Positions 5,596 through 56,647 are shown, counted from the first letter of the stretch. The stretch is DNA of 64,000 bases from Nitrososphaeria archaeon (GCA_050011875.1 JBEKIG010000011.1:32001-96000), one strand, 5' to 3'. The notes: generated by a model not told the origin, from the letters alone. Program-made: numbers and translations.

Positions 5596-6209
5596 AACAT
5601 TTAACCATAGGTGTCTTCGGCCTTCAGGGCGATATAGAGGAACATGTAGCTATAACGAAAATTACTCTAGACCAGATGAGATTGGACGGTGCAGTTATCT
5701 GGGCCAAGACCGAGAAAGACATAGAAAACTTAGATGGACTTATAATACCGGGCGGCGAAAGCACAGTTATAGGAAGATTAGCAGACTACAACAAAGCACT
5801 GAAAGCCGTTAAGGAAAGGATATACGCCGGCATGCCTGTGCTTGGAACATGCGCAGGCTTCATCATGCTTGCCAAAAAAACTTCTGACCGGGTAGTGGCT
5901 GACGTTAAGCAGCCAATTCTAGGCGTTATGGATGTAGTGGTTGAACGGAACGCCTTCGGCAGACAAAAGGAATCCTTTGAGGTTGACTTAGAGATTCCGG
6001 CTCTCGGTAAAAAAACGTTTAGAGGAATATTCATCAGATCCCCCGCAATACGGGAGACTGGACCAGAAGTTGAAACCCTATGCAAACTCAAAGAAACCAT
6101 AGTCGCCGCACAACAACACAACATCATAGGCATAGCCTTCCACCCCGAACTCACAAACGACACAAGACTCCACAAATACTTCATAAAAACCATTACAAAA
6201 ATCTCATAA
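5592..6209 (+). CDS. pdxT: Pyridoxal 5'-phosphate synthase glutaminase subunit PdxT
   Basis: [35 protein letters not shown]. Confidence 0.97.
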
Positions 6210-6570
6210 CTATCTTTAGCCTAATGCCCTTCATTGGAGAAAAAGATAGGGCAAATAAAGAAAGATTCTTCGAGCAACTTAGAGGGAACGTTCCTAATAA
6301 AAAGTATAATGAATAACTATATGACTATGTAAATTAGAGAAAGGAACTCGAAGTAAGAGCATCCTAGATTTTCGAAACTACTATCATATTTTAAACACAG
6401 AATTTTTTTTCTTGTAGTCTCTTAAAGTGTCCAAGTTCTTTGTCTCTTAATATCTTCTGTTCTGGATATTAGTAGATACCTACATGTGTGTTTTAATTCT
6501 TTCTATTGAGTGATCACGAGATGTCTTATAATGAGATATTTTCTTTTAACCCTGTGCTCCTATCTTGAAT

Positions 6571-7467
6571 TTATTCTTTTTCTGCTTTCTTGGTTGCTTC
6601 CTTTGCCATATTTGCAAGGTCTTTGATTCCGTAGAGTCCATATACAGGCATACTGGTTGTTGTACCGTCTGTTGAACCGGCTGTTGAACTGGTTGTTGAA
6701 GCAGCTGTTGAAGCAGCTGTTGAACCGGCTATTGGCATATTAGCTGGCATCAGTATTATCGTATTCTTTCCCTGCAATCCAAGCTCATAGATTATGTTCA
6801 TCCACTTTAATTGGAAGGCTATATCTTGTCCCTTGTACAGGTTCGCGGCATCCACCATCTTCTGTGCCACTTCGTATTCCGCCATAGCCAATATCACTCT
6901 AGACCTCCTTTCCCTTTCAGCTTGAGCTTGTCTTGACATGGCATCCTGTAGAGCCTGCGGTAATCCGACGTCTCTAATTTCGACTGCAGTAACTTTTATT
7001 CCCCAAGCCTCCGTCTTCGAATCTATAATTCCTCTAGCGATAGCACCAACCTTTTCCCTTTCAGTTAGCAACTCATCGAATGAAGCCTGACCAATGACCT
7101 CTCTGAGTGTTGTCTGGGCGGCTAATTGCGTCGCATAATTAAAATCCTCTGCACCCAAAACGACCTTTTGTAGGTCAACAGGTTGGAAGTACATAACGGA
7201 GTCAACTACTACTGGCACGTTGTCCTTTGTCAAAGTCTGTTCAGTCTTAAACGAAACCACCTGTAGCCTGGTCGATATGACAAATGGTACCCTTGATATA
7301 AACGGTGGAACATATATTACACCAGGACCTTTGAGACCTCTGTATCGACCCAGTGTAAGAAGAGGAGCCCTCTCCCATTCTTTGAGTATCTTGATCCCGC
7401 TGAGAAATATTGCTATAACTATCAGAATTATTATTACTAGGATAGAAAGAGTAGCTACATCCATCAA
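6571..7467 (-). CDS. SPFH/stomatin-like (slipin) membrane protein
   Basis: N-terminal TM, LTKDNVPV, AQTTLREVIG, WGIKVTAVEIRDV, QAQAERERR; downstream of nfeD. Confidence 0.92.
   Translation of the reverse strand: MMDVATLSILVIIILIVIAIFLSGIKILKEWERAPLLTLGRYRGLKGPGVIYVPPFISRVPFVISTRLQVVSFKTEQTLTKDNVPVVVDSVMYFQPVDLQKVVLGAEDFNYATQLAAQTTLREVIGQASFDELLTEREKVGAIARGIIDSKTEAWGIKVTAVEIRDVGLPQALQDAMSRQAQAERERRSRVILAMAEYEVAQKMVDAANLYKGQDIAFQLKWMNIIYELGLQGKNTIILMPANMPIAGSTAASTAASTTSSTAGSTDGTTTSMPVYGLYGIKDLANMAKEATKKAEKE
6670..6729. repeat. Five tandem 12-bp units (TGTTGAAnnnGn) encoding a Ser/Thr/Ala tract in the stomatin C-terminus
   Basis: Units tgttgaaccggc, tgttgaactggt, tgttgaagcagc, tgttgaagcagc, tgttgaaccggc encode AGST AAST AAST TSST AGST. 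Confidence 0.85.
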
Positions 7468-7548
7468 CTTTCACCTTAAAAATGTGTAATTAGAACCTCC
7501 TATTAATCTTTTCTCTTCCAATCCGATGTTTACTGGATATCTAGTCGA

Positions 7549-8847
7549 TCAAGTTTTCTCAACGATGAGCTTGAGCTTTTCTATTGACTTTATCCTTACG
7601 GATTCGCCCTTTAAAACGTCTCCTGAAATTGACTTCGCTTTCCAGATTATACCTTCTACTCTTACATCACCTTCGGGGTTTAGATCTGTTATCGCGACAC
7701 CAATCTTTCCCACAACCGACTCCGGTCCTGTCAGCTTACCTCCGCGCCTTAAAGGCCCTATCACCCACCTGGAGTAGAGACCTGCGACTATGCCGATAAC
7801 TATTACCATAAAGATTTCTAGTCCCGTTACTGAAGTAATAGGTGAGGGTGAATAGGGTATTCCGTATGTCAGCAATATTATGCCTAACGCTCCAAGTACT
7901 ACGCCCCCCATAAGCGCGAAACCATGGCCAAGCTTCAATTCGAGGATAATTAGGACGGCGGCAGCTGCTAAGACGACATAGCCGAGTACTGAAGCATCTA
8001 TTACCTCGCCTCCAATGAGACCGGCTATAATCGCCACACCGCCAACTATACTGAGAAGTATGGTGGGATGGTAGACGTCTAAAACAATAGCGACTATCCC
8101 AAGCAGAATCAGTATGCCGTCGAGTGTCGAGTCACTCAGGGCACTGAGGAATTGTTGATACACATTCTCATTAAAGGTGACCTGTGGGCTTCCTGAAAGT
8201 CCAAATATGCTGATCGCTTCGCTTAATGAGCCTGCAAATCCGTTACTCACATGATAACTGAACGCTTGGTCAGCTGAGAACGCCTGGTCATATTGTACCA
8301 TGTTGTAAGCTGCGGTTGTGTTCCTTCCCCATTCCTGAGCCAGGCTGACCAAGAGTTGCAGCATCGCGGCCTGGGTGTGATTCTGCTCCAAGGCAGTGCC
8401 TCCTATCACTTCAGGCGTGCTGGGACCGATCAGGGAACCTGGACCCATCAAAATCTTGTTTGTAGCCATCGCTATATAGCTACCAGCGGACGCTGCTAGG
8501 CCATTTGGTACGACGTAGGTGTAGACCGGTATTCCTGATTGGTTAGCCTCCGTTATATAAGAAATTATGTTGATCATGTCGCTGAGAAGCCCACCTGGAG
8601 TATTCATCACAATAACTATTGCCGAGGCCTTCTGGCTTAAGGCGTAATTAATAGCTCCCTGGACGAAAGCAGATGAGCCCGGGTCAACGGCAACATCAAA
8701 ATTTATTATTACGACAGAGCCTGGAGGGGAATCAGCTGAGACAGTATGGGCACCTGCGAAGCAGTTGACCAACAATAAAAGAAAAAGTAACAGGAACATC
8801 CAATGTAAAGCATTAAACTTATTTAAGGCTCTATATCGTTTTTCCAA
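7549..8847 (-). CDS. nfeD: NfeD family (stomatin operon partner) protein with ClpP-like N-domain, TM block and OB domain
   Basis: NTPGG, AASAG, GRN, multiple TMs, C-terminal GKIGVAITDLNPEGDVRVEGIIWKA. Confidence 0.88.
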   Translation of the reverse strand: MEKRYRALNKFNALHWMFLLLFLLLLVNCFAGAHTVSADSPPGSVVIINFDVAVDPGSSAFVQGAINYALSQKASAIVIVMNTPGGLLSDMINIISYITEANQSGIPVYTYVVPNGLAASAGSYIAMATNKILMGPGSLIGPSTPEVIGGTALEQNHTQAAMLQLLVSLAQEWGRNTTAAYNMVQYDQAFSADQAFSYHVSNGFAGSLSEAISIFGLSGSPQVTFNENVYQQFLSALSDSTLDGILILLGIVAIVLDVYHPTILLSIVGGVAIIAGLIGGEVIDASVLGYVVLAAAAVLIILELKLGHGFALMGGVVLGALGIILLTYGIPYSPSPITSVTGLEIFMVIVIGIVAGLYSRWVIGPLRRGGKLTGPESVVGKIGVAITDLNPEGDVRVEGIIWKAKSISGDVLKGESVRIKSIEKLKLIVEKT

Positions 8848-28633: not shown

Positions 28634-29612
28634 TCATTTGTTTGCCTTAATATCATTTAAAAAGTGTTTCGCTGCGAAGTTCATCTTTCTTTCAACGTGT
28701 ATATTGATGTCCTCATGCGCCATACCCGGGTATATCGCCAGTTCCTTTCCTTCTGAACCCAAATGGTGGAATGCTGCGAACACCGTTGAAGGCGGACACA
28801 CGATATCTATTAGACCTACAGACATTAGGACGGGTACCTTAACTTTTGGTGCGAAGTTCATGGCATCAAAGTAAGAGAGTGTTTCCATAACTTTTTCTTC
28901 ATCTTCTGGATGGGTCTTTAGGTAATTTAAAATTTCCAAGTACGGACCTGTTTCAGCAACGTATACAGCTCGATCAAAATGGCAGAGGTATGGCACACTC
29001 GGTAACGCAAGTGAGACATTATCGTGTAACGCTGCTGTCACTACAGTCAGTCCTCCACCTTGGCTTACCCCTGAGACAGCGATCCTCTTCGTGTCAACAT
29101 CCTCCCTTGCAGTGACGTAGTCGGAGGCTCTATAGCAATCCATAAAGACATATCTATAATAGTATTTGTTTTTGTCTTGGATTCCCTTTGTCATGTTACC
29201 GGTAATATTTCCCACGTCATACATTGCGTCGTCCGGGGCTTCACCACCCTGTCCCCCTAACATCTACCGTCAAAACAGAGAAACCTAGGGCAATCCACCC
29301 TAAATAATCAGAAACCGTTCCTTTGCTGCCACTGTATCCGTGAATAAAAACCATCGCAGGCTTGGGTTCATTATCGTCTGCGGACTTTATGAAGTAGCCA
29401 GTAATTGGAGTCCTATCTTTAAAACCATCAAATATCAACTTTGAGACCTCCACTTTCTTTGAGAAGAAATCTACTTTCTTTATTTTGGCATTTAGAGGTT
29501 GATCTTTCGCCCTCCCTATATTATCCTTCCAGAACCTTTCAAAGTCCTTTGTTTTTGTTAGCTTTGGCTTGTAAACCTTAAGTTCATTTAACGGAAGATC
29601 AACTAATGGCAT
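28634..29612 (-). pseudogene. Acetyl xylan esterase / cephalosporin-C deacetylase (CE7), split by a +1 frameshift in a G5 run (29253-29257)
   Basis: N-part MPLVDLPL..DFERFW..HGY..DVRG and C-part QGG..YYYRYVFMD..GVSQGGG..YFD..DIVCPPS..H join into the CE7 RGQ motif if one G is removed. Confidence 0.88.
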
Positions 29613-29825
29613 GAATTTTTCAGATGAGATTAAGTAGATAAGCTTTTTCATCTAACCATAACTGCATAAAAAAAGATTGTTTATAACAAAAAATAAGTTA
29701 ACACATGGATTAAGTCATATGAATAGAAATTTAACGGAATACTTCGCGTTTTCCTTTTCATTAGTAATTAGTAGTTTATTTTCTAATGTGGATTTTTTAG
29801 TGTTATTAATGATTTTATGCCAATA

Positions 29826-42741: not shown

Positions 42742-43158
42742 ATGGTGAAACGCCTTTCTGTCATTGATTCTAATAGATGTACGGGTTGTCAGAGCTGTAT
42801 GTTCGCATGTTCTAGAAGGTTTGGTTCTGGAGGACTAGCTAATGCTGCAATACATGTCAAATCAGTTGGTGGCATGGAAAATGGTTTTGTGGTTGTTGTC
42901 TGTAGGGCTTGTCCTAGTCCTCCATGTGCTAAGGTTTGTCCTGTTGACGCATTATCTGTGAGAACTGGTGGAGGTGTTAGGTTGGACAATTCAAAATGCA
43001 TAGGTTGTGGCCTTTGCGCAAAATCCTGTCCATATAGTGCAATATTATGGAATGAGGAAGAAAATAAGCCCATAATATGCGTGTATTGTGGATACTGTGC
43101 CAACTATTGCCCTCATGACGTTATAGCCCTTGAAGAGTTGGAGGCAAAGACGCTATGA
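42742..43158 (+). CDS. 4Fe-4S dicluster/polyferredoxin subunit partnered with AOR
   Basis: CTGCQSCMFAC, CRAC..PPCAKVCP, CIGCGLCAKSCP, CVYCGYCANYCP; ATGA overlap with the AOR gene. Confidence 0.93.
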   Translation: MVKRLSVIDSNRCTGCQSCMFACSRRFGSGGLANAAIHVKSVGGMENGFVVVVCRACPSPPCAKVCPVDALSVRTGGGVRLDNSKCIGCGLCAKSCPYSAILWNEEENKPIICVYCGYCANYCPHDVIALEELEAKTL

Positions 43159-44915
43159 TCGAAAAAAATTCCCTTAACAATATCTTATATCTGGATCTTA
43201 CTAGGAAGCGCTTCTGGGTCGACGAGCGAAGGGATCTTTTCGAAGAATATCTGGGCGGTATAGGTGTGGCTTCAAAGCTTCTCATCGGAGAATGCGCCCA
43301 AGGGGTTGACCCGCTTTCTCCAGAAAATGTCATAGTGTTTGCTGTAGGTCCCCTTAATGGTTTGTTCCCTCTCGCATCGAAGACTGTCAGCTGCTTTAAG
43401 TCTCCTCTTACAAAAAATTATGGAGAAAGTCATGCTGGAGGAAGAAGCTCCATAGCCATCAGACTAGCGGGCTATGGTGCTATTGTGATAAAAGGTGCAA
43501 GCGACTATCCTGTCTACATATCTATTCATGGAAAGAATGTGAGCTTCAGGGACGCTTCAGCGTTATGGGGTGTTAGAAGTAGCATAACTGTTGGGAGAGT
43601 TCTAAGGAATGTGGAAGAGGGGGCGGGTATACGCACGATTATGCGAATAGGTGGAGCTGGAGAAAATCTTGTATCCTATGCTTCTGTTAATACCGAAACC
43701 TATCGCCATTTTGGGCGACTAGGTTTAGGAGCTGTTTTTGGTAGCAAGAAGTTGAAGGCGCTCGTGATTTCCGGGAAGACTACGGTTCCTGTGTCTGACA
43801 AGAGACTTTACAGGGAAGTCTATGATAAGATTTATGACGCTGCAACAAAGTCTCCTGTTATGAAAAAGTATCATGATTTAGGAACTGCCTCGAATATTAA
43901 TCCATTAAATGTTATGAAGGCTCTGCCAACAAAAAATCTTAAGGAATCTTACTTTGATTCTGCTGAAAAAATTTCTGGAGAATATTTGGCCGAAAAATAT
44001 CTTGGGCGTCGCACTGCTTGTGCACACTGTCCTGTTGCATGTATACACCTTGCTGCCTTAAGGGAGCCTTATACTAATGAACCGTACTTCTATAAGACAA
44101 CCATGACATCATATGATTACGAACTTCTTTATTCACTTGGTTCTATGTTAGGTGTTGACGATACAGAGGCTGTCCTCAAGCTCATTAATGAAGTTGAAAT
44201 ATGGGGGCTTGATGCAATGATGGTTGGGACTGTTCTTTCTTGGATAACCGAAGCCTTCGAAATAGGAATCATCAACGAAGATCAGACGATGGGACTTAAG
44301 GTAAAATGGGGTGTCTATGACGAATATGCTAAGGCAATAAGGTACATCGTCACACAGCCAAACGACTTCTACAAGATTGCTGCAAAGGGTCTACAGAGTC
44401 TAGTAGAACAATATGGTGGAGATAGTTTTGCTTTGACTTACGGTGGAAATGGAATGCCAGGATACCATACTGGGCCAGCTGCACACCTAACGTACATTAC
44501 TGGTGCCAGACATAGTCATCTTGACAGTGCAGGTTACAGTCTAGACCAAGAAGGCTTGAAGAAAGGCCTGCCTTCAGTCAAAGAACTGGCTACAAATCTG
44601 TATCTTGAAGAATCCTGGAGACAGATCTTATCAAGTCTTGTTGTTTGCTTTTTTTCACGAGGACTTTACACTCCTCAACTGGTTTCGGAAGCCCTAAAGG
44701 TTGCAGGATCAAGCCTTTCTGAAGAGGACCTAAACAAGCTCGGCAAGAAGATCCTCGGGAACAAGAACCGTTTCAAGGAACAAGAGGGCTTTAACATGTT
44801 AGCCTTAAAGTTTCCGAGAAGGATATTTGATCTACCAACACCAAACGGTATACTAGATGAAAAGCAACTCGAAGAAGCCGTAGCACTATATTACTCCCTC
44901 CTTTATAGTACGTGA
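43155..44915 (+). CDS. aor: Aldehyde:ferredoxin oxidoreductase family (tungstopterin) protein
   Basis: YLGGIG, KSPLT..GESHAGG, GRLGLGAVFGSKKLKA, CAHCPVAC, DYE, GLD. Confidence 0.9.
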   Translation: MIEKNSLNNILYLDLTRKRFWVDERRDLFEEYLGGIGVASKLLIGECAQGVDPLSPENVIVFAVGPLNGLFPLASKTVSCFKSPLTKNYGESHAGGRSSIAIRLAGYGAIVIKGASDYPVYISIHGKNVSFRDASALWGVRSSITVGRVLRNVEEGAGIRTIMRIGGAGENLVSYASVNTETYRHFGRLGLGAVFGSKKLKALVISGKTTVPVSDKRLYREVYDKIYDAATKSPVMKKYHDLGTASNINPLNVMKALPTKNLKESYFDSAEKISGEYLAEKYLGRRTACAHCPVACIHLAALREPYTNEPYFYKTTMTSYDYELLYSLGSMLGVDDTEAVLKLINEVEIWGLDAMMVGTVLSWITEAFEIGIINEDQTMGLKVKWGVYDEYAKAIRYIVTQPNDFYKIAAKGLQSLVEQYGGDSFALTYGGNGMPGYHTGPAAHLTYITGARHSHLDSAGYSLDQEGLKKGLPSVKELATNLYLEESWRQILSSLVVCFFSRGLYTPQLVSEALKVAGSSLSEEDLNKLGKKILGNKNRFKEQEGFNMLALKFPRRIFDLPTPNGILDEKQLEEAVALYYSLLYST

Positions 44916-49473: not shown

Positions 49474-49893
49474 CTATGGGCAGCACTTGCCTTTTGGAAT
49501 AAGGCTACCATGGGGGCAGTACCTCGGATGCTTGAGTAACGTGCATAAGGCGTTTGTGAAATCCTCATCCATGTGGTGTTCCATACCGCAAACGGTCTGC
49601 TCCTGGATTTCGGTCTTAAGCGTTTTCTTCATCAAGACTTCGATCAACCTATGAGCTCGAATAATCCTCCTCCCTATTTCCCTCCCCTTGTCGGTGAGTT
49701 CAATTCCATGTCGGACTTCGTATATCACTAAACCTTCCTTCTCTAGTTTCTTCAGCATCTCCACGGCGCTAGGAGCTGATATGCCCAAATGCCCCGCAAC
49801 CCACTTTATATGCGCTAGTCGTTCTCCAGTTTCCTCGGATACCCAGAGCGCCTCCATGTACTCCTCCATGCTCTCAGAAACAGAAACGCTCAT
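49474..49893 (-). CDS. DtxR/MntR family metal-dependent transcriptional regulator
   Basis: EEYMEAL, SAPSAVEMLKKL, HRLIE, CGMEHH, CPHG..IP. Confidence 0.92.
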   Translation of the reverse strand: MSVSVSESMEEYMEALWVSEETGERLAHIKWVAGHLGISAPSAVEMLKKLEKEGLVIYEVRHGIELTDKGREIGRRIIRAHRLIEVLMKKTLKTEIQEQTVCGMEHHMDEDFTNALCTLLKHPRYCPHGSLIPKGKCCP

Positions 49894-50327: not shown

Positions 50328-50350
50328 CGTTATGTTTTTATAGCATAACG
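50328..50350. promoter_or_regulatory. Palindromic operator CGTTATG-N9-CATAACG (ModE-box-like) upstream of the Mo/W operon
   Basis: Perfect 7-bp inverted repeat 30 nt before the ATG at 50381. The half-sites resemble the CGTTAT/ATAACG core of ModE boxes. Confidence 0.65.
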
Positions 50351-50380
50351 TTATCGCAAAGAGGCTAAGGTGAATCCTAA

Positions 50381-51871
50381 ATGAGAAAGGTTTCGAAAAC
50401 AAAAGGCATGATCAAGCCAAAATTTATCACGATCGCGGTTATCGCTATAATCGTCGTAGCAGCTATCGTCATAGGAGCCGTTGCCGTTTGGCAACTGAGT
50501 TCAAGTCCATCCAACAAAAAAAATACAGCAACCACACTCCCATCAATGAATTTAACCCTCATAGGGGCAACTGGAAATCAAATAATCTTGCATTCAAGTG
50601 ACATTGCAAAGCTTACCACTTACTCCGGGTACGGAGGCTACAAGAGCAGCGGTGGAATGCTCGGCGGCTTCGGTAATTACACCGGTGTACCACTAGTGAC
50701 CCTCCTGAACCTGGTAGGCGGCATCACTACCAACCAAACGGTCACAATAACAGGCAGCGACGGATATTCGATGGTTTACACCTATCAGCAGGTGAACGGC
50801 CAAGGTTACATCGCCTATGATCCAGTGACTGGCAGTGAATCCTCAGTTACCCGACCATTGACCGTGATACTCGCATATTACTATAACAGCACGACCCTGA
50901 CTTCTGATGTAGGACCCCTCAGACTCGTTATTCTGGGACCCCAAAGCTTACTCACTGAAGGCCATTTCTGGACTAAATTAGTGGACAAAATAGAAGTAAC
51001 TCAGAGTGTGGAGAATTGGAATCTAGTTGTCAACGGCACAACTCCTCTGAACATGGATATGCAAGCGTATACGGCAGACATCAATCACTTCCCACAAAAC
51101 TATACTGATAATACCGGCAACGTTTGGACAGGTGTAGCTCTGGATCAATTCGTATCTTACAGTGCCATCAACGGCGGCATAAGCAACGCATCTCTGGCCA
51201 AAGGTTATGTTGTGAAAGTGATAGGTGGAGATGGCTATTTCGCCATTATGAATGATACCTTTGTCAACAATAACAATAACATAATTGTCGCAGCAAAGCT
51301 AAACGGTGCCATACTCCCCAGCCCGTACTGGCCTTTGACTCTAGTCGGTTCAGACTTAACCATGAAACAAATGGTCAAGGACATAGTCCAAATCCAGATA
51401 ATGCCGATACCACACATGAACCTAACAATAGTAGGCTCCAACGGAACCCAAATAGTACTACACTCACAAGACATTGCGTCTTTTAGCTCATACACGGCAG
51501 CAGGAGGATTCAAAGGAAAGGGTGGAATCCAAGGCGTCGGCAATTATACTGGTGTACCAATTCTGACCCTCCTGAACCTGGTAGGCGGCATCACTACCAA
51601 CCAAAACGTAACAATTACGGGCAGCGATGGATATTCGATGGTTTACACCTATCAACAGCTGAATGGACAGGGGCTGAACACGTACGACCCCACGACCGGA
51701 AACCCAACGTCAGCCACCCAATCTATGACAATGATCGTAGCCTATTACCGAAATGGAGCAGCGCTGCCTTCCGGAGGACCTTTGACAATCGCGATTGTAG
51801 GGCCTCAGGGCTTGCTCACGGATGGAAACAAATGGGCGAGTATGACAGAGAAGATTCAGGTAAACCCCTAG
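50381..51871 (+). CDS. Membrane-anchored extracellular protein with three molybdopterin-oxidoreductase-like (sulfite oxidase fold) domains, no Cys
   Basis: N-terminal TM. Three repeats of (Y/W)TGV.L..L...G....V...G.DGY...I.A...NG....(G/W)PL.L........(W/M).....I.(V/I). More than 10 N-x-S/T sequons. Confidence 0.75.
   Translation: MRKVSKTKGMIKPKFITIAVIAIIVVAAIVIGAVAVWQLSSSPSNKKNTATTLPSMNLTLIGATGNQIILHSSDIAKLTTYSGYGGYKSSGGMLGGFGNYTGVPLVTLLNLVGGITTNQTVTITGSDGYSMVYTYQQVNGQGYIAYDPVTGSESSVTRPLTVILAYYYNSTTLTSDVGPLRLVILGPQSLLTEGHFWTKLVDKIEVTQSVENWNLVVNGTTPLNMDMQAYTADINHFPQNYTDNTGNVWTGVALDQFVSYSAINGGISNASLAKGYVVKVIGGDGYFAIMNDTFVNNNNNIIVAAKLNGAILPSPYWPLTLVGSDLTMKQMVKDIVQIQIMPIPHMNLTIVGSNGTQIVLHSQDIASFSSYTAAGGFKGKGGIQGVGNYTGVPILTLLNLVGGITTNQNVTITGSDGYSMVYTYQQLNGQGLNTYDPTTGNPTSATQSMTMIVAYYRNGAALPSGGPLTIAIVGPQGLLTDGNKWASMTEKIQVNP
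50697..51605 (+). repeat. Intragenic direct repeat: 42-bp identical block at 50697-50738 and 51564-51605 (domains 1 and 3)
   Basis: tgaccctcctgaacctggtaggcggcatcactaccaaccaaa is identical in both; a second identical block ggatattcgatggtttacacctatca follows each. Confidence 0.9.
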
Positions 51872-51902
51872 ATCATGAAAATAAGAGAGGAAATGAGGCT
51901 AA

Positions 51903-52985
51903 TTGAGAAAAGCTCACATCACGATAGCCTTAATCATGGTGGTCCTCGCGGTGGCCTTAATTTCCTCCACGTTTTATTTTTCCAATTATCCATCAAAGCA
52001 GACACTTACGATCTACTGCGCCACAAGCCTATTGTACCCACTTCAAAAAGTTCAAGCTGACTTCGAGAAAGCCAACCCAAATATAGATGTACAACTTCAG
52101 GCACACGGCAGCATTCAGGTCATTAGGCAAGTGACGGAGCTAGGTCAGAGCGTCGACCTCCTTATGGTCGCCGACTACTCCCTGATTCCAACAATGATGT
52201 ACAACACAAAAGTCCCAGGTACAAACCAAAGCTTCGCAGATTACTATATCAGATTTTCCACTAACAGTATCGTCTTAGCCTACACCAACCGCAGTCAATA
52301 TGCAGGCGAAATCAACTCCAGTAACTGGTATTATGTACTGACTCAGCCCAGCGTCAAAATAGGATTAGTAAATCCTGAACTGGACGCGCTCGGCTACAGA
52401 ACGCTGATCACTGTTCAACTTGCCTCAGCCTACTATAATGATTCAGAGTTATTTCATGACCTAATCACGGACAACTTCAACCCTCCTATAAATTCCGTCA
52501 TGAATGGGACAGGATATACCATCATTATTCCTACCACACAACAACCTGTAGGAAACAAGATAATCCTAAGGGCGAGCGAAGTTGACCTCATTCCGCTTCT
52601 CCAAGAAGGATATCTCGATTACTGCTTTCTCTATCTCAGCAACGCGAAACAGTACGGCTTTTCCTACATTACTCTTCCAAACGAGGTGAACCTTGGCTCC
52701 ATCCAAGACAATCAGAACTATTCGCAGGTGTACGTGTCATACGAACATCAAAGATTTGACACGGTAAGCCTAGACAGAACGGGAGAAACAATATACTACG
52801 GCATGACGATACCCACAAATGCGCCAAATCCAGCTTTAGCAATGAAGTTTATTCAATTTGTTTTGAATGGACTAGGAAGAAACGATTTTGAGCAGTCATG
52901 GCAAACCATCTTCAATCCCTCCTTCACGGACAATCCTCAAGCGCTCCCCCAAAGTCTTCAACAAATGGTTTTGAAAGAACCCTAG
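51903..52985 (+). CDS. wtpA: Tungstate/molybdate ABC transporter substrate-binding protein
   Basis: ATSLL, GSIQVIRQV, VADYSLI, NPELDALGYR (Asp ligand), RASEVDL (Glu ligand), IYYGMTIP.NAPN. Confidence 0.9.
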   Translation: MRKAHITIALIMVVLAVALISSTFYFSNYPSKQTLTIYCATSLLYPLQKVQADFEKANPNIDVQLQAHGSIQVIRQVTELGQSVDLLMVADYSLIPTMMYNTKVPGTNQSFADYYIRFSTNSIVLAYTNRSQYAGEINSSNWYYVLTQPSVKIGLVNPELDALGYRTLITVQLASAYYNDSELFHDLITDNFNPPINSVMNGTGYTIIIPTTQQPVGNKIILRASEVDLIPLLQEGYLDYCFLYLSNAKQYGFSYITLPNEVNLGSIQDNQNYSQVYVSYEHQRFDTVSLDRTGETIYYGMTIPTNAPNPALAMKFIQFVLNGLGRNDFEQSWQTIFNPSFTDNPQALPQSLQQMVLKEP

Positions 52986-53036
52986 TTCGCACTCTTAGAA
53001 CAGGAATACTTCAAACATGGTATAGGAATTACCTAG

Positions 53037-53302
53037 TTGGTTTGGCTAGGAGAGAAATCACCTTTATCATTTTGTCAACAGTCCTAGAGCCCCGTCTGAT
53101 GTTATTCTTAGTACCCTTTATTCCGATCATCAGTTCGCTGATAGGTTCAGTTCAAGGCCTATCAACCGCTTTGACCAGTTCTGAAACACTTAAAGCTATA
53201 CTAACAAGCTTCTATTGTGCCGTCTTGGCTACCGTACTCATTCTGATTGGCAACCCCAAGAAGGCCCACGACATGAAGTCTATCAGAAGCTTCTGCGCTT
53301 AG
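53037..53302 (+). pseudogene. Decayed N-terminal remnant of a wtpB permease gene
   Basis: TTG start MVWLGEKSP / FIILSTVL..IPIISSLIGS..GLSTALTS.ETLKAILTSFYCAVLAT aligns with the intact WtpB N-terminus MKWLKDKSPFII..TINAIATSFYCATLAT. Confidence 0.85.
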
Positions 53303-53399
53303 AGTAAATATAAGAACTCAAACTCGTTCAAGAAATCACCCTGTGGTTATGATTAAGGCCTATGACATTGTGCAATTTGAAAAACAGAACCACGTCTGA

Positions 53400-54323
53400 T
53401 CATGAGACTATTACCTGGCAGACAAATTTGGCCCATCTATATCCCCATTTATATTCATTAACAGGTAGAAACAATCTAAATGGTCCTCCTTGACTTAGTG
53501 GGAGATACGTGTAGTTCTCTTGAAAACCTATAAGCATTTGTGAATCTTTGATTTGTTGAATTGTGAAATTTTCTTCATAGCCATCGATTGCGACTACTGT
53601 TATCATTGTGGCTTTATTTGACATATTTGAGACTTGAAGCAGACCTAACATAGACAGACCGGTCCAGTTTGCGGTTACTTGTGGTGAATCACCAGGAGCA
53701 AATTCTGATTCAATGGTTCTTTCCTGAAAGTTTGTCATGTTTTCTCCTGTAAATGTGAGGGGGTTCGAAACAGCTCCGGAAATCGAGACGGTCCAAAGGC
53801 CAATGTTCAAATCAGCTACACTTTCTATTTGATATTGTTCCCCAAACCATGGAGTGATTAGCTCCACCGGGCCGCCTGTTTCATTTGTCATCCATTGCCC
53901 GTTCTTTACGAAGGCTAGAATTATCCTATTATTTATCTGATACCGAGGATAAGCGGTGCTGTTCCAGGCTTGAAAAACATTCAAGGTTACACTCTGTCCA
54001 TTTGCGCCGATGATGTCAATTGGTCCCGCGTCCCAGAGCATACCGCTTTGGTTGCAGAATTCTAAAAGACTTACCCCGATGTAGGTCGCGTTTTCGCCAT
54101 TAATTACAGTATTAACGCTTGTTAACGGCATCTTAGAGATTTCTTTTAATGTCCATGTTCTTTGTTGCATAACGTCGCCTGTGACAGTTATCTGCCAATC
54201 TGAAGGTTCTCCTGAGGGTAACTGATTCGTAGTTTGTAGAGTGTGATAATAGATTGCCAAAGTTGCCGTGATGAAAATGATTATTATGATGAAGGCGGAA
54301 AGGATCTTGGTTCTCTTTTCCAT
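53400..54323 (-). CDS. Membrane-anchored protein with two molybdopterin-oxidoreductase-like domains
   Basis: N-terminal TM; WQITVTGDV..TLKEI..YIGVSL..NGQ..GGPVEL and WTVSISGAVSNP..WTGLS..AIDGY..QGGPFRL..WAKFV. Confidence 0.75.
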   Translation of the reverse strand: MEKRTKILSAFIIIIIFITATLAIYYHTLQTTNQLPSGEPSDWQITVTGDVMQQRTWTLKEISKMPLTSVNTVINGENATYIGVSLLEFCNQSGMLWDAGPIDIIGANGQSVTLNVFQAWNSTAYPRYQINNRIILAFVKNGQWMTNETGGPVELITPWFGEQYQIESVADLNIGLWTVSISGAVSNPLTFTGENMTNFQERTIESEFAPGDSPQVTANWTGLSMLGLLQVSNMSNKATMITVVAIDGYEENFTIQQIKDSQMLIGFQENYTYLPLSQGGPFRLFLPVNEYKWGYRWAKFVCQVIVS

Positions 54324-54456
54324 TATGTCTCATCTTGAGATTAACGTAAGGTCGATCATCTTAATATATTTTTTTCTGAGCATGACAAGGTCATTTAGGA
54401 TTATTAGGCATTTTTACCACGGTTTCTGAATGTAGCATGTGCGTCAGTGATTCTCT

Positions 54457-54680
54457 ACGGTAAACTTAGACAGAACGGGTGAAACCATATACTACGGATT
54501 AGCCATACCTTCAAACGCGCAGAACTTTGGTTCAGCAACAAAATTTATCAGATCCATTTTGATTGGACATGAAAAAGTGATCTCGAGCAGTCTTGGCACC
54601 CCATTTTCAATCAGTCCTTCACATACAATCTTCAAGCTCTCCCACCAATTCTACAGCTACTGGTTGTGGAAGAATATTGA
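54457..54680 (+). pseudogene. Decayed copy of the wtpA 3' end
   Basis: TVNLDRTGETIYYGLAIPSNAQN...KFI / DLEQSWHPIFNQSFTYNLQALPPILQLLVVEEY* parallels the WtpA C-terminus TVSLDRTGETIYYGMTIPTNAPN..DFEQSWQTIFNPSFTDNPQALPQSLQQMVLKEP. Confidence 0.88.
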
Positions 54681-54727: not shown

Positions 54728-55780
54728 TTATTCCAAGATCTTGACGGAGTCGGCCGTGAAGGAAAGCCATACTTCCTGTTCTGGGTAGAGTTCGAGGTTT
54801 AGGTAAGTTCTTTTTGGGATTGCGGCTTTGATCATCGGTCCTGCATCGACTGTTACCATTACGGTGGGGCCAAGGTCGCTGTAGTCCTTAGTCATTCCTT
54901 TGAGGAGATTCTCCGCGTGATAAGGCTGCATTCTCGAGATGGTAATATCGCTGGGGTGAATTCCAATCAGGTTAGTGTTTTCCTTTATTTCGCCCTCAGT
55001 TATTAGTTGATGGCCAAATGGAGTTAAAGTCAACAATTTTCTCTGCTTATCAGCGACTCGTACTGGATGTATGTTTTCGTAGCCAAGGAATCTTGCGAGA
55101 AAACTGTTTTGCGGGTTTTCGAAGATTTCTCTTGTCTCTCCTATCCGTATCATTCTTCCGTCGCGAATTACTCCTATTCGTTTGGCTAGGTAGAAGGCTT
55201 CCAATTGATCATGCGTAACGTGCATTGTTGTAAATTTGAGTTCCTTGTTTATTCTTTTCAGTTCTTCCCTAAGGTTCTGTCTCGTTTCCGTATCCATTGA
55301 GCTCAACGGCTCGTCCAAAAGGACTAACTCGGGTTCTATGGCAAGGACTCGAGCTAGTGCCACCTTCTGCTTTTCTCCTCCGCTAAGTGTGGGCGGAAAT
55401 CTGTTTTCAAGTTTTTCCAAACCAAGTATCAGGGACATCTCATTCACTTTTCTTTGTCTCTCACTTTCTAGCTTCCCTTGCATCTTTAGGCCGAACTCGA
55501 TGTTCTGCCACACCGTCATATGAGGGAAAAGGGTGTCTTTCTGCGGCACGTAACCAATCTTCCTCCTTTCTGGGGGATACGACGTGACATCCTTGCCGTT
55601 AAGAAATATTTTGCCCTTGTCGGGTTTGTAGAAACCTTCTATGACTTCTAAGAGGAGGGATTTGCCTGCGCCTGTGGGGCCAAGCAGCGCAAAGTATTCG
55701 CCGTCACTTATCTCTAGATTTATGTCGGTGAGCGCGAAGCCCCGCCATGCTTTGCTGACTCCCTCGACTCTTAATCCCAA
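54728..55780 (-). CDS. wtpC: Tungstate/molybdate ABC transporter ATP-binding protein with TOBE domain
   Basis: GPTGAGKS, LSGGEKQ, LLDEP, HVTHD, C-terminal TOBE-like region. Confidence 0.88.
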   Translation of the reverse strand: MGLRVEGVSKAWRGFALTDINLEISDGEYFALLGPTGAGKSLLLEVIEGFYKPDKGKIFLNGKDVTSYPPERRKIGYVPQKDTLFPHMTVWQNIEFGLKMQGKLESERQRKVNEMSLILGLEKLENRFPPTLSGGEKQKVALARVLAIEPELVLLDEPLSSMDTETRQNLREELKRINKELKFTTMHVTHDQLEAFYLAKRIGVIRDGRMIRIGETREIFENPQNSFLARFLGYENIHPVRVADKQRKLLTLTPFGHQLITEGEIKENTNLIGIHPSDITISRMQPYHAENLLKGMTKDYSDLGPTVMVTVDAGPMIKAAIPKRTYLNLELYPEQEVWLSFTADSVKILE

Positions 55781-55796
55781 CTTGTTTCACCTTATT

Positions 55797-56591
55797 TCAG
55801 CGTAATGTATCGGTTGGCCTAATGAAAGCTTTCCTGAAAATTATTAGGAGGATTACGGAGAAGATGATCAGTATTCCTGTGATTGGCATGGCAGCGCTCA
55901 ATCCTTCGCTCACGAAGACATCGTATAGGTCCACAGCGGCGGTCTTTGGGTAGTAGGCGAGGATCACCACTGCGCCGAACTCGGCAATCGCCCTAGCCCA
56001 GGTCATGACACACCCGGCCATGATTCCCCTTGAAGCTAAGGGGAAGGTTATATTCGTAAAGACCTTCATGTTACTTGCACCCATGCTCCTCGCCGCCTTC
56101 TCCATTGAAGGATTCACGGACGAGAAAGCTTCTTGGGCGCTTCTGATAGTGAATGGAGCACTGACGAACGCCATAGCTACTACTATTCCCAGATAGGTAT
56201 CGACGACATTTATCCCCAAAGATTTGTTTAGTCCACCTATTATGGAGTATGGGCCAAGCGCGAAAAGGAGCGCTATTCCAGCAGCGTCGTGGGGAATTAG
56301 GATCGGAATATCTATGAGCGAGTTTATAACGGCTTTACCTTGGAAATCATACCTCGTCATCAAATATGCAAGGGGAACACCTGAGATGAAGGTGAAAATG
56401 GTGGCGAGGGTCGCACAGTAGAAGCTAGTTGCTATAGCGTTAATGGTTTGCACATCAGTTAAAGCTGACAGGAGGCCAGTGGAAGAGCCGGCCAAAGACG
56501 CCAGGATTGGAATTCCTAGGAACAGAACCATGACTAGGCCTAGGATTAGGGAAGTAATGATAAAGGGCGATTTATCTTTTAACCATTTCAT
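55797..56591 (-). CDS. wtpB: Tungstate/molybdate ABC transporter permease
   Basis: GVPLAY, IDIPILIPH..AGIALL, FVSAPF, EKAARSMGA (EAA loop), WARAIAEFGA..ILAYYP. Confidence 0.9.
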   Translation of the reverse strand: MKWLKDKSPFIITSLILGLVMVLFLGIPILASLAGSSTGLLSALTDVQTINAIATSFYCATLATIFTFISGVPLAYLMTRYDFQGKAVINSLIDIPILIPHDAAGIALLFALGPYSIIGGLNKSLGINVVDTYLGIVVAMAFVSAPFTIRSAQEAFSSVNPSMEKAARSMGASNMKVFTNITFPLASRGIMAGCVMTWARAIAEFGAVVILAYYPKTAAVDLYDVFVSEGLSAAMPITGILIIFSVILLIIFRKAFIRPTDTLR

Positions 56592-56601
56592 GTTATCAAT
56601 A

Positions 56602-56647
56602 TTCCGATTTTACGTTATTAAATTTTCCGATTTCACGTTATTAAAAA
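56602..56647. repeat. Tandem 23-bp duplication directly upstream of wtpB
   Basis: TTCCGATTTTACGTTATTAAATT followed by TTCCGATTTCACGTTATTAAAAA; each unit contains CGTTAT. Confidence 0.8.

Follow-up and report, generated by a model that had tools for sequence, protein, structure and literature searches.

The 64-kb window analysed here, a stretch of 64,000 nucleotides (nt) from a Nitrososphaeria archaeon, encodes between positions 50381 and 54323 two proteins, A and B, that are built of repeated domains with the sulfite oxidase (SUOX) fold and that lack the Cys that ligates Mo in the enzymes of this fold. On balance, we believe that both proteins are PruR-like modules without catalytic activity that bind a ligand outside the cell and help in the acquisition of molybdenum or tungsten (Mo/W). 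The association of Cys-less SUOX-fold binders with Mo/W acquisition is the new element here, and it is well supported by gene neighborhoods and natural fusions. No paper was found that links such proteins to tungstate/molybdate uptake, to the S components of energy-coupling factor (ECF) transporters or to prokaryotic uptake of the molybdenum cofactor (Moco), a provisional result since subscription journals were mostly outside the coverage of the search. A preliminary description of this DNA had called the accessory uptake role uncharacterised. This holds for the link to Mo/W uptake but not for the binders themselves, since Cys-less secreted SUOX-fold binders are known as a class, of which PruR has been characterised (PMC11194511).

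Domain architecture and relic active site

An open reading frame (ORF) check confirmed both genes. Protein A (496 amino acids; 50381..51871, + strand) has an N-terminal membrane helix (residues 18-36) and, behind it, three SUOX-fold domains without Cys, A1 (residues 53-209; nt 50537-51007), A2 (residues 210-343; nt 51008-51409), and A3 (residues 344-496; nt 51410-51868), all on the + strand. Protein B (307 amino acids; 53400..54323, − strand) consists of a helix (residues 7-25) and two such domains, B1 (residues 39-168; nt 53820-54209) and B2 (residues 169-307; nt 53403-53819), both on the − strand. Both proteins match the Pfam family PF00174 (Oxidored_molyb) above its gathering score of 24, with 52.9 bits for A and 89.1 bits for B. 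A1 and A3 are 61% identical (E 5e-70), while A2 is divergent, and the A1/A3 duplication is also seen in the DNA as a direct repeat of 239 nt (50666-50904 versus 51533-51771, 74%). B1 and B2 match each other with an E value of 2.6e-6. These repeats emerged after the domains had been cut out; whole-length blastp self-comparison of A and B gave the diagonal only. The Pfam matches and the domain comparison thus bear out the three and two repeats that had been read from the sequence.

The N-termini of A and B are Lys-rich and are each followed by a single hydrophobic helix. The dipeptide RR is found nowhere in either protein, in keeping with the earlier remark that neither has an obvious twin-arginine signal. 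Protein A carries 12 sequons (2.42 per 100 residues) and protein B carries 9 (2.93 per 100 residues), against a median of 0.35 for the 64 ORFs of the window, among which B has the highest and A the second highest density; the excess over composition-preserving shuffles has a P value of 0.0185 for A and 0.0025 for B. Homologs carry P/T/S-rich linkers. Those homologs of A or B for which an organism is given are all labelled Bathyarchaeota, Bathyarchaeia, or archaeon, and we assign the window to an archaeon of the Bathyarchaeia type. The description of A and B as N-terminally anchored, sequon-rich proteins was therefore correct, and these features suggest that both are located at the cell surface, outside the membrane.

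A single-sequence search of the PDB with A returned chance-level matches only. Structures were predicted by AlphaFold2 with family alignments and compared with the PDB using Foldseek. The models reached a predicted local distance difference test score (pLDDT) of 90.5 and a predicted template modelling score (pTM) of 0.82 for B, and a pLDDT of 85.6 for A. The only high-probability Foldseek matches of A (0.99-1.00) and of B were SUOX-family enzymes and PruR, with a probability of 1.00 to 1xdq, 2blf, and 1sox. Protein B superposes on YedY (1xdq) with an E value of 1.1e-9 and a root-mean-square deviation of 2.0 Å over 151 columns. When normalised to the target, the best structural match of both proteins was PruR of Agrobacterium and other Proteobacteria (PDB 7kos, 7kou, 7rkb, 7kom, and 7kp2), with template modelling scores of 0.73-0.79 for B and 0.64-0.70 for A, and single domains of A and B cover PruR nearly whole. 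The predicted fold is therefore that of the SUOX domain.

In an alignment made with a profile of 41 B homologs, B2 (173-307) matches residues 64-222 of SorA (2blf) with an E value of 3.8e-14, and the Mo-ligand Cys of SorA ('NQCSGNSR') lies opposite P210 of B. Between the Cys position and the W-T-G motif, 18 SorA residues have no counterpart in B, and neither does the N-terminal part of the Moco domain, as the alignment begins at residue 64. Conservation was counted over 41 homologs of B, 29 of A, and 23 of a small SUOX-like protein encoded in related loci (see below). P210 is kept in 38 of the 41 B homologs and is followed by G or S (F-A-P-G). No column with a conserved Cys was found at the Mo-ligand site in any of the three sets. 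The window proteins themselves have no Cys (A) or two, C90 and C302 (B), so that the absence of Cys from A, and from the position before W-T-G in B, stands as first described. The only column with at least 50% Cys is that of C90 (30/41), which lies in a B1 helix away from the ligand site, and several homologs are entirely Cys-free (7/41 for B, 4/29 for A, and 15/23 for the small SUOX-like protein).

One canonical domain per protein, A1 in A and B2 in B, retains the D-G-Y, the G-P-x-R, and the C-terminal Trp that line the pterin cleft in SUOX enzymes and in PruR. In A1, D127-G128-Y129 and R181 are present in 29/29 homologs and W197 in 28/29; in B2, D247 is present in 41/41, Y249 in 39/41, and both R283 and W293 in 38/41. 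The other domains (A2, A3, and B1) have lost the canonical cleft motifs, and B1 has an invariant F-Q-A-W/Y-N-S motif of its own. Judged by motif position and secondary-structure register, the D-G-Y and the C-terminal Trp of A1 and B2 probably correspond to N102, Y104, and W160 of PruR. An alignment of B1 with PruR obtained by phmmer is probably one strand out of register and was not used for residue mapping. In PruR, Tyr104 and Trp160 sandwich the pterin ring, which is hydrogen-bonded by Asn102, replaced by Asp in some groups (PMC11194511 and PMC13259868), and the Cys hairpin is shortened, leaving a cleft that was judged too small for Moco (PMC11194511).

PruR and the domains of A and B have in common a minimal SUOX fold of ~130-150 residues, a Sec-type N-terminus, a non-enzymatic character, the loss of the Mo-ligand Cys, a truncated hairpin, and, judged by motif position, probably a conserved aromatic pair at the pterin cleft. 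They differ in several respects. PruR is a single-domain bacterial protein in which a P-W motif replaces the Cys, whereas B has A-P-G and no Trp there. PruR is encoded in a two-gene operon with the sensor DcpA and acts in cyclic di-GMP signalling, whereas the neighbors of A and B are wtpABC and genes for an S component, a phosphoesterase, MobA/MobB, and a ModE-like regulator. Unlike PruR, A and B are archaeal, contain two or three domains (up to 10 in relatives), and are membrane-anchored and sequon-rich, and it is with Mo/W transport and mob genes that they are found linked or fused. With the SUOX enzymes (SorA/SorT, sulfite oxidase, and YedY/MsrP), A and B share the fold, PF00174, and the motifs W-x-G, D-G-Y, N-G, and G-P-x-R-L. 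These enzymes have a Cys on a long hairpin, an extra N-terminal segment, and a redox partner, none of which is seen in A or B. Extracytoplasmic SUOX enzymes are loaded with cofactor in the cytoplasm and exported by the twin-arginine translocation (Tat) system. No redox partner (haem domain, cytochrome, or MsrQ) was found among the window genes or among the Pfam-scanned neighbors in loci L004, L009, L014, L020, L024, and L037. With a SUOX fold at the cell surface and no Mo-ligating Cys, Tat motif, or redox partner gene, a non-enzymatic extracellular binder is the best reading of both proteins.

Linkage and fusion to Mo/W transport and cofactor genes

A single scan of the GTDB species genomes with the B alignment yielded 39 loci, all from metagenome-assembled genomes (MAGs) of the Bathyarchaeia group, three of which are titled Nitrososphaeria, Crenarchaeota, or uncultured archaeon. 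One locus (L039) was dropped, as its match spanned 30 residues, and the proteins of the window and of the loci were searched by jackhmmer against six-frame ORFs of the remaining 38. Either wtpA and wtpB or mobA/mobB lie within 10 kb in 34/38 loci. The other four are limited by contig ends: L003, L013, and L036 are contigs of 2.9-3.6 kb, and L011 ends just past A. For a random gene, we would expect proximity to Mo/W genes in a few percent of cases, a rough figure of ours rather than a calculation. Thirteen loci include the DNA 3' of A, and in 10 of them wtpA comes directly next, on the strand of A (the exceptions being L008, L009, and L038); the contig stops downstream of A in four further loci (L003, L010, L011, and L013).

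The first group of loci encodes a B protein at least 49% identical to that of the window. Eight of them (L004, L005, L006, L007, L014, L015, L016, and L027) have metallophosphoesterase/A/wtpA/wtpB/wtpC in this order on one strand and B divergent from them; the order recurs in L002, where the phosphoesterase gene is missing, and L001, whose B is 88% identical, has the rearranged order of the window. The phosphoesterase (for instance L004:8731-9855, − strand) matches PF00149 above the gathering score (E 4.5e-8 to 3.7e-9) and has hydrophobic helices at both its N- and C-termini, a P-E-F-P-G tail, and 7 sequons, which suggest that it is probably another surface protein. It had no NCBIfam match and no meaningful sequence match in the PDB. 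Its gene heads the A-wtpABC operon in these eight loci and adjoins B, divergently, in 15/38. Tungstate and molybdate are phosphate analogues to which metallophosphatases of the dinuclear type bind.

The second group contains 20 loci (L017-L026 and L028-L037), with B proteins 41-51% identical to that of the window and with neither A nor wtp genes. In all 20, the genes for an S component (PF09819), B, and a small SUOX-like protein of 167 amino acids are contiguous. A gene with a ModE repressor domain (TIGR00637, E 4e-14) heads this operon in 16/20, and a mobB-type gene adjoins it on the 3' side in 19/20, often with a second mobB and mobA. The S component is present in 24 loci (for instance L020:9316-9888, + strand; PF09819, E 1e-14), always with B and/or the small SUOX-like protein directly 3' of it. 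Its H-K-x-C-C-x-x-C-C motif, located in a hydrophobic stretch, is at least 95% conserved across these 24 loci, and the Atlas clusters closest to this protein bear the name 'ECF transporter S component family protein'. Four loci (L005, L008, L009, and L038) combine the gene sets of both groups. L008 encodes, contiguously and on one strand, a ModE-like protein, ModA, ModB, a ModC-like protein, the S component, and the small SUOX-like protein; its ModA scores 95 bits against TIGR01256 (cut-off 62.5) and its ModB 199.5 bits in NCBIfam (cut-off 182.6). Overall, 24/38 loci encode B together with an S component of the ECF type and the small SUOX-like protein, next to mobA/mobB, and mobA/mobB are adjacent in 25/38. 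The three architectures, together with B identities down to 41%, argue for selection, short of a formal test.

Several genes in these loci appear split. The wtpA gene of L001 (11172-12165, − strand) appears as 2-3 consecutive ORF pieces, and in L005, wtpA, A, wtpC, and the phosphoesterase gene are in 2-3 ORF pieces (5969-6945 and 7077-8664, − strand). These could be either pseudogenes or frameshift errors of MAG assembly.

When homologs of the small SUOX-like protein were sought by a word-based method, no more than 22 relatives, all close and from Bathyarchaeia, came up. A profile of the same protein retrieved, among 1.84 billion, 2569 cluster representatives with a threshold of E≤1e-3, and 436 with E≤1e-10. 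Features were counted on the best 150 of these, and 34 of the longer ones were scanned with Pfam and NCBIfam. Among the best 150, 95 are single-domain proteins of at most 210 amino acids, 89 of which have an N-terminal hydrophobic segment and 7 an RR within the first 35 residues, while 50 contain 2-10 domains. Over the 265 domains of these 150 proteins, Cys does not exceed 11% at any profile position, and the three D-G-Y/F positions are kept in 251, 218, and 229 domains, respectively; the C-terminal Trp is likewise conserved in the wider family. This large family has no annotation of its own, and its members routinely carry the mistaken labels 'molybdopterin-dependent oxidoreductase' or 'YedYZ catalytic subunit'.

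Three of these proteins are natural fusions. P0271 (619 amino acids) joins a lipoprotein-like N-terminus and a ModA domain (TIGR01256, 152 bits, cut-off 62.5; PF13531, E 3e-50) to two Cys-less SUOX-like domains, and P0249 (366 amino acids) and P0283 (364 amino acids) each join a PF09819 S component to a SUOX-like domain, the CC-x-x-CC motif being retained in P0283. The ModA and S-component fusions provide a separate line of evidence for a module that acts on the cell surface jointly with Mo/W binding proteins and with the S component. Linkage to Mo/W transporters outside the window, through conserved synteny, the L008 operon, and these fusions, is thus much stronger than the preliminary description could know.

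Other members of the family are much larger. P0252, P0267, P0275, P0335, and P0346 are 1556-2794 amino acids long, with 4-10 SUOX-like repeats; SLH domains are present in all of these except P0252, and some have Reg_prop or cadherin-like domains. The range of architectures suggests that the Cys-less module is widely used in bacterial cell-surface proteins.

The window locus and its candidate operators

In the window, the stop codon of A is separated by 31 nt from the start of wtpA (51903..52985, + strand), which encodes a tungstate ABC substrate-binding protein with a transmembrane segment at residues 6-24. Its product scores 296.4 bits against TIGR03730 (cut-off 242.75) and 313.8 bits against NF003196, under the cut-off of 355. 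Spacing and conserved gene order suggest that A and wtpA are co-transcribed. The genes wtpC (54728..55780, − strand; ABC ATPase with a TOBE domain; PF00005 and PF03459) and wtpB (55797..56591, − strand; ABC permease; PF00528) lie beyond B. It should be noted that only WtpA passes an equivalog cut-off, the best NCBIfam matches of WtpC (NF040840, 375 bits) and WtpB (NF040839, 257 bits) being below theirs (440 and 340, respectively).

Two wtp remnants, detected by tblastn, flank B and are decayed pieces of a second wtp operon. The wtpB remnant (53048..53275, + strand) corresponds to the N-terminal ~75 residues, is 46% identical to residues 5-78 of the intact WtpB, and sits inside an ORF of 134 amino acids (52898..53302) with a weak match to NF040839. 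The wtpA remnant (54445..54674, + strand) corresponds to the C-terminal ~75 residues, is 59-63% identical to residues 283-359 of WtpA, and carries an in-frame stop and a frameshift; it is also seen as a DNA repeat (D2) of wtpA (52748-52872 versus 54444-54568, 71%). In the lineage of the window, which includes L001, wtpB-wtpC-B lie on one strand, convergent with A-wtpA, whereas the other loci are collinear. As the window locus is rearranged relative to the collinear phosphoesterase/A/wtpA/wtpB/wtpC order found elsewhere, the linkage to Mo/W genes outlived a rearrangement. A tungsten-type aldehyde:ferredoxin oxidoreductase (AOR; 43155-44915), assigned on the basis of Pfam, is encoded together with its ferredoxin (42742-44915) ~5 kb upstream of the locus. 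No gene for an S component, a phosphoesterase, or a Mob protein was found within the 64-kb window.

Three ATAACG/CGTTAT hexamers at 50328..50354, 27-53 nt 5' of the start codon of A, overlap a TATA-like sequence (TTTTTATAG) and form a candidate operator. These three matches fall within 240 nt around the start of A, whereas the background frequency, taken across all loci, is 0.47 per kb. A second candidate operator, a tandem 23-nt repeat (56598..56643, − strand; family D5) of two copies that are 91% identical and that each contain TAATAACGT, abuts the start of wtpB on its 5' side and includes two of the hexamers. L001 has the motif at both corresponding places, 5' of A and 5' of wtpB, and most other loci are without it. 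We therefore treat ATAACG as a lead specific to the lineage of the window and L001, and the sites are possibly the operator of a Mo/W-responsive regulator.

A DtxR/MntR-like repressor gene (49474-49893, − strand) is divergent from A. It was rejected as a member of the system, since it is not beside A in L001, the closest locus, or in any other locus, and it is probably unrelated to A and B. Elsewhere in the window, two adjacent ORFs of 209 and 136 amino acids (28637-29651, − strand) match the C- and N-terminal parts of AXE1 (acetyl xylan esterase), as if a frameshift or an error in sequencing had divided this gene.

Proposed role in Mo/W acquisition

In the role that we propose, A and B would be exported by Sec, held on the outer face of the membrane by their N-terminal helix, and N-glycosylated. 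A1 and B2 would bind, in the relic pterin cleft, a ligand that is or carries Mo or W, the degenerate repeats A2, A3, and B1 probably serving as spacers or interaction surfaces. The modules may concentrate or present Mo/W species beside the N-terminally anchored WtpA, or, in relatives, beside ModA or the S component, to which the captured ligand would pass. Also counted in favor of a Mo/W role are the tungsten-type AOR in the same window and the ATAACG motif shared by the promoters of A and wtpB. As for the ligand, the conserved residues of the pterin cleft favor a pterin-bound form, as do mobA/mobB, the phosphoesterase, and the S component with its vitamin-type character, and the A-wtpA operon, the ModA fusion, and the truncated cleft favor a small inorganic one.

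ModA, WtpA, and TupA resemble A in being extracytoplasmic and, in archaea, membrane-anchored; WtpA is further tied to A by their operon, and ModA to SUOX-like domains by the fusion in P0271. Their class II substrate-binding protein fold (PF13531) is unrelated, and ModA and WtpA are established oxyanion receptors. To our knowledge, the ModA, WtpA, and TupA systems described so far include no accessory extracellular protein. We likewise know of no ECF S component that depends on extracellular helper domains, the known ones binding their substrate themselves; the PF09819 S components found here have the CC-x-x-CC-type motif and are in some cases fused to a SUOX-like domain.

Several observations weigh against the proposed role. 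The preliminary description had A and B feeding WtpABC, and while a non-enzymatic extracellular binder is indeed the best reading, no more than 12/38 loci have B linked to WtpABC. As the 38 loci belong without exception to a single class, the Bathyarchaeia, the synteny partly reflects shared ancestry. The 34 architectures scanned from the best 150 representatives include only one ModA fusion and two S-component fusions, and others carry SLH, PKD, CARDB, cadherin-like, or Cu_amine_oxidN1 (cell-surface) domains, so that the module may be a generic extracellular binder whose ligand varies by context. The conserved D-G-Y, Arg, and Trp could be structural instead of ligand-binding. Finally, WtpA alone binds tungstate extremely tightly, and the need for a helper is therefore not obvious.

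Among the alternatives, one that we hold to be unlikely is cofactor salvage, in which the domains would bind molybdopterin, Moco, or tungsten-cofactor forms from dead cells, the phosphoesterase would trim them, the S component would import the pterin, WtpABC or ModABC would recover the metal, and MobA/MobB would re-nucleotidylate the product. By motif position, the residues that sandwich the pterin in PruR (Tyr104, Trp160, and Asn/Asp102; PMC11194511 and PMC13259868) probably have their counterparts in the D-G-Y and Trp conserved in A1, in B2, and in the small SUOX-like protein. The S component belongs to a class that imports vitamins and cofactor precursors and forms one protein with the domain in P0249 and P0283, a surface metallophosphoesterase gene precedes A/wtpABC in 8 loci and lies beside B in 15/38, and mobA/mobB adjoin 25/38. 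However, the cleft-closing hairpin and the N-terminal segment are absent, and the truncation in PruR was judged to leave too little room for Moco (PMC11194511). Transport and mob genes often cluster, which salvage is not needed to explain, the 64-kb window has no S component, phosphoesterase, or mob gene, Moco is labile, and prokaryotic Moco uptake was not found in print.

The remaining alternatives are less likely. It is improbable that the domains act as PruR does, binding a small excreted pterin or another signal and regulating a membrane partner rather than delivering a substrate. Their closest solved non-enzymatic relatives are indeed PruR proteins, which bind pterin and, in the periplasm, modulate DcpA (PMC11194511), and the truncated site, the Cys loss, and the secretion signal are common to both. 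However, no DcpA-type, GGDEF/EAL, or histidine-kinase gene was found next to that of either protein, whether in the window or among the loci scanned with Pfam, the P-W motif of PruR is absent (B has A-P-G), the partners are transport and cofactor genes, and the multi-domain repetition is unlike PruR. Still less do we favor the view that A and B are generic surface glycoproteins, with an envelope, adhesion, or carbohydrate-binding role, whose position in a Mo/W island is inherited and functionally meaningless. This view is consistent with the relatives of the domain in giant SLH/PKD/cadherin-like proteins with up to 10 repeats and with synteny data from a single archaeal class, but the linkage survives three gene orders and the rearrangement in the window lineage, ModA and S-component fusions exist, and a ModE-like regulator heads the operon. 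Genuine extracellular Mo/W enzymes, with a non-Cys ligand and loaded outside the cell, are very unlikely: despite significant matches to the SUOX catalytic domain and a neighborhood rich in Mo/W cofactor genes, there is no Cys at the ligand site, the active-site hairpin is truncated, no Tat motif is present, no haem, cytochrome, or MsrQ-type partner was found in the scanned genes, and, with the SorA alignment starting at residue 64, the N-terminal segment of the Moco domain is left unmatched.

The proposed role of A and B as binding modules for Mo/W acquisition could be extended, in a version that we regard as speculative and rather doubtful, to a capture arm for forms of Mo/W that ModA and WtpA cannot take, namely pterin-bound cofactor from necromass or the thio-metalates of sulfidic sediment. 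The Cys-less relics would bind such species, the surface metallophosphoesterase would process them, the CC-x-x-CC S component would import them, and MobA/MobB would rebuild the dinucleotide cofactor. If this route were true, it would be the first ECF system with extracellular helper domains. It could also explain the Mo/W supply of organisms without recognisable mod, wtp, or tup genes, some Mo/W-using organisms being without a recognisable transporter (PMC9246946).

More generally, if the family serves the acquisition of metal or cofactor, it would represent a new component of trace-metal uptake in anaerobic archaea and bacteria, and a widespread annotation error would be corrected. On the current view, an ABC transporter and its binding protein are all that Mo/W uptake requires. 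Under the proposed role, an enzyme domain that binds a cofactor would have been put to a new use outside the cell, in handling the very metal of that cofactor.

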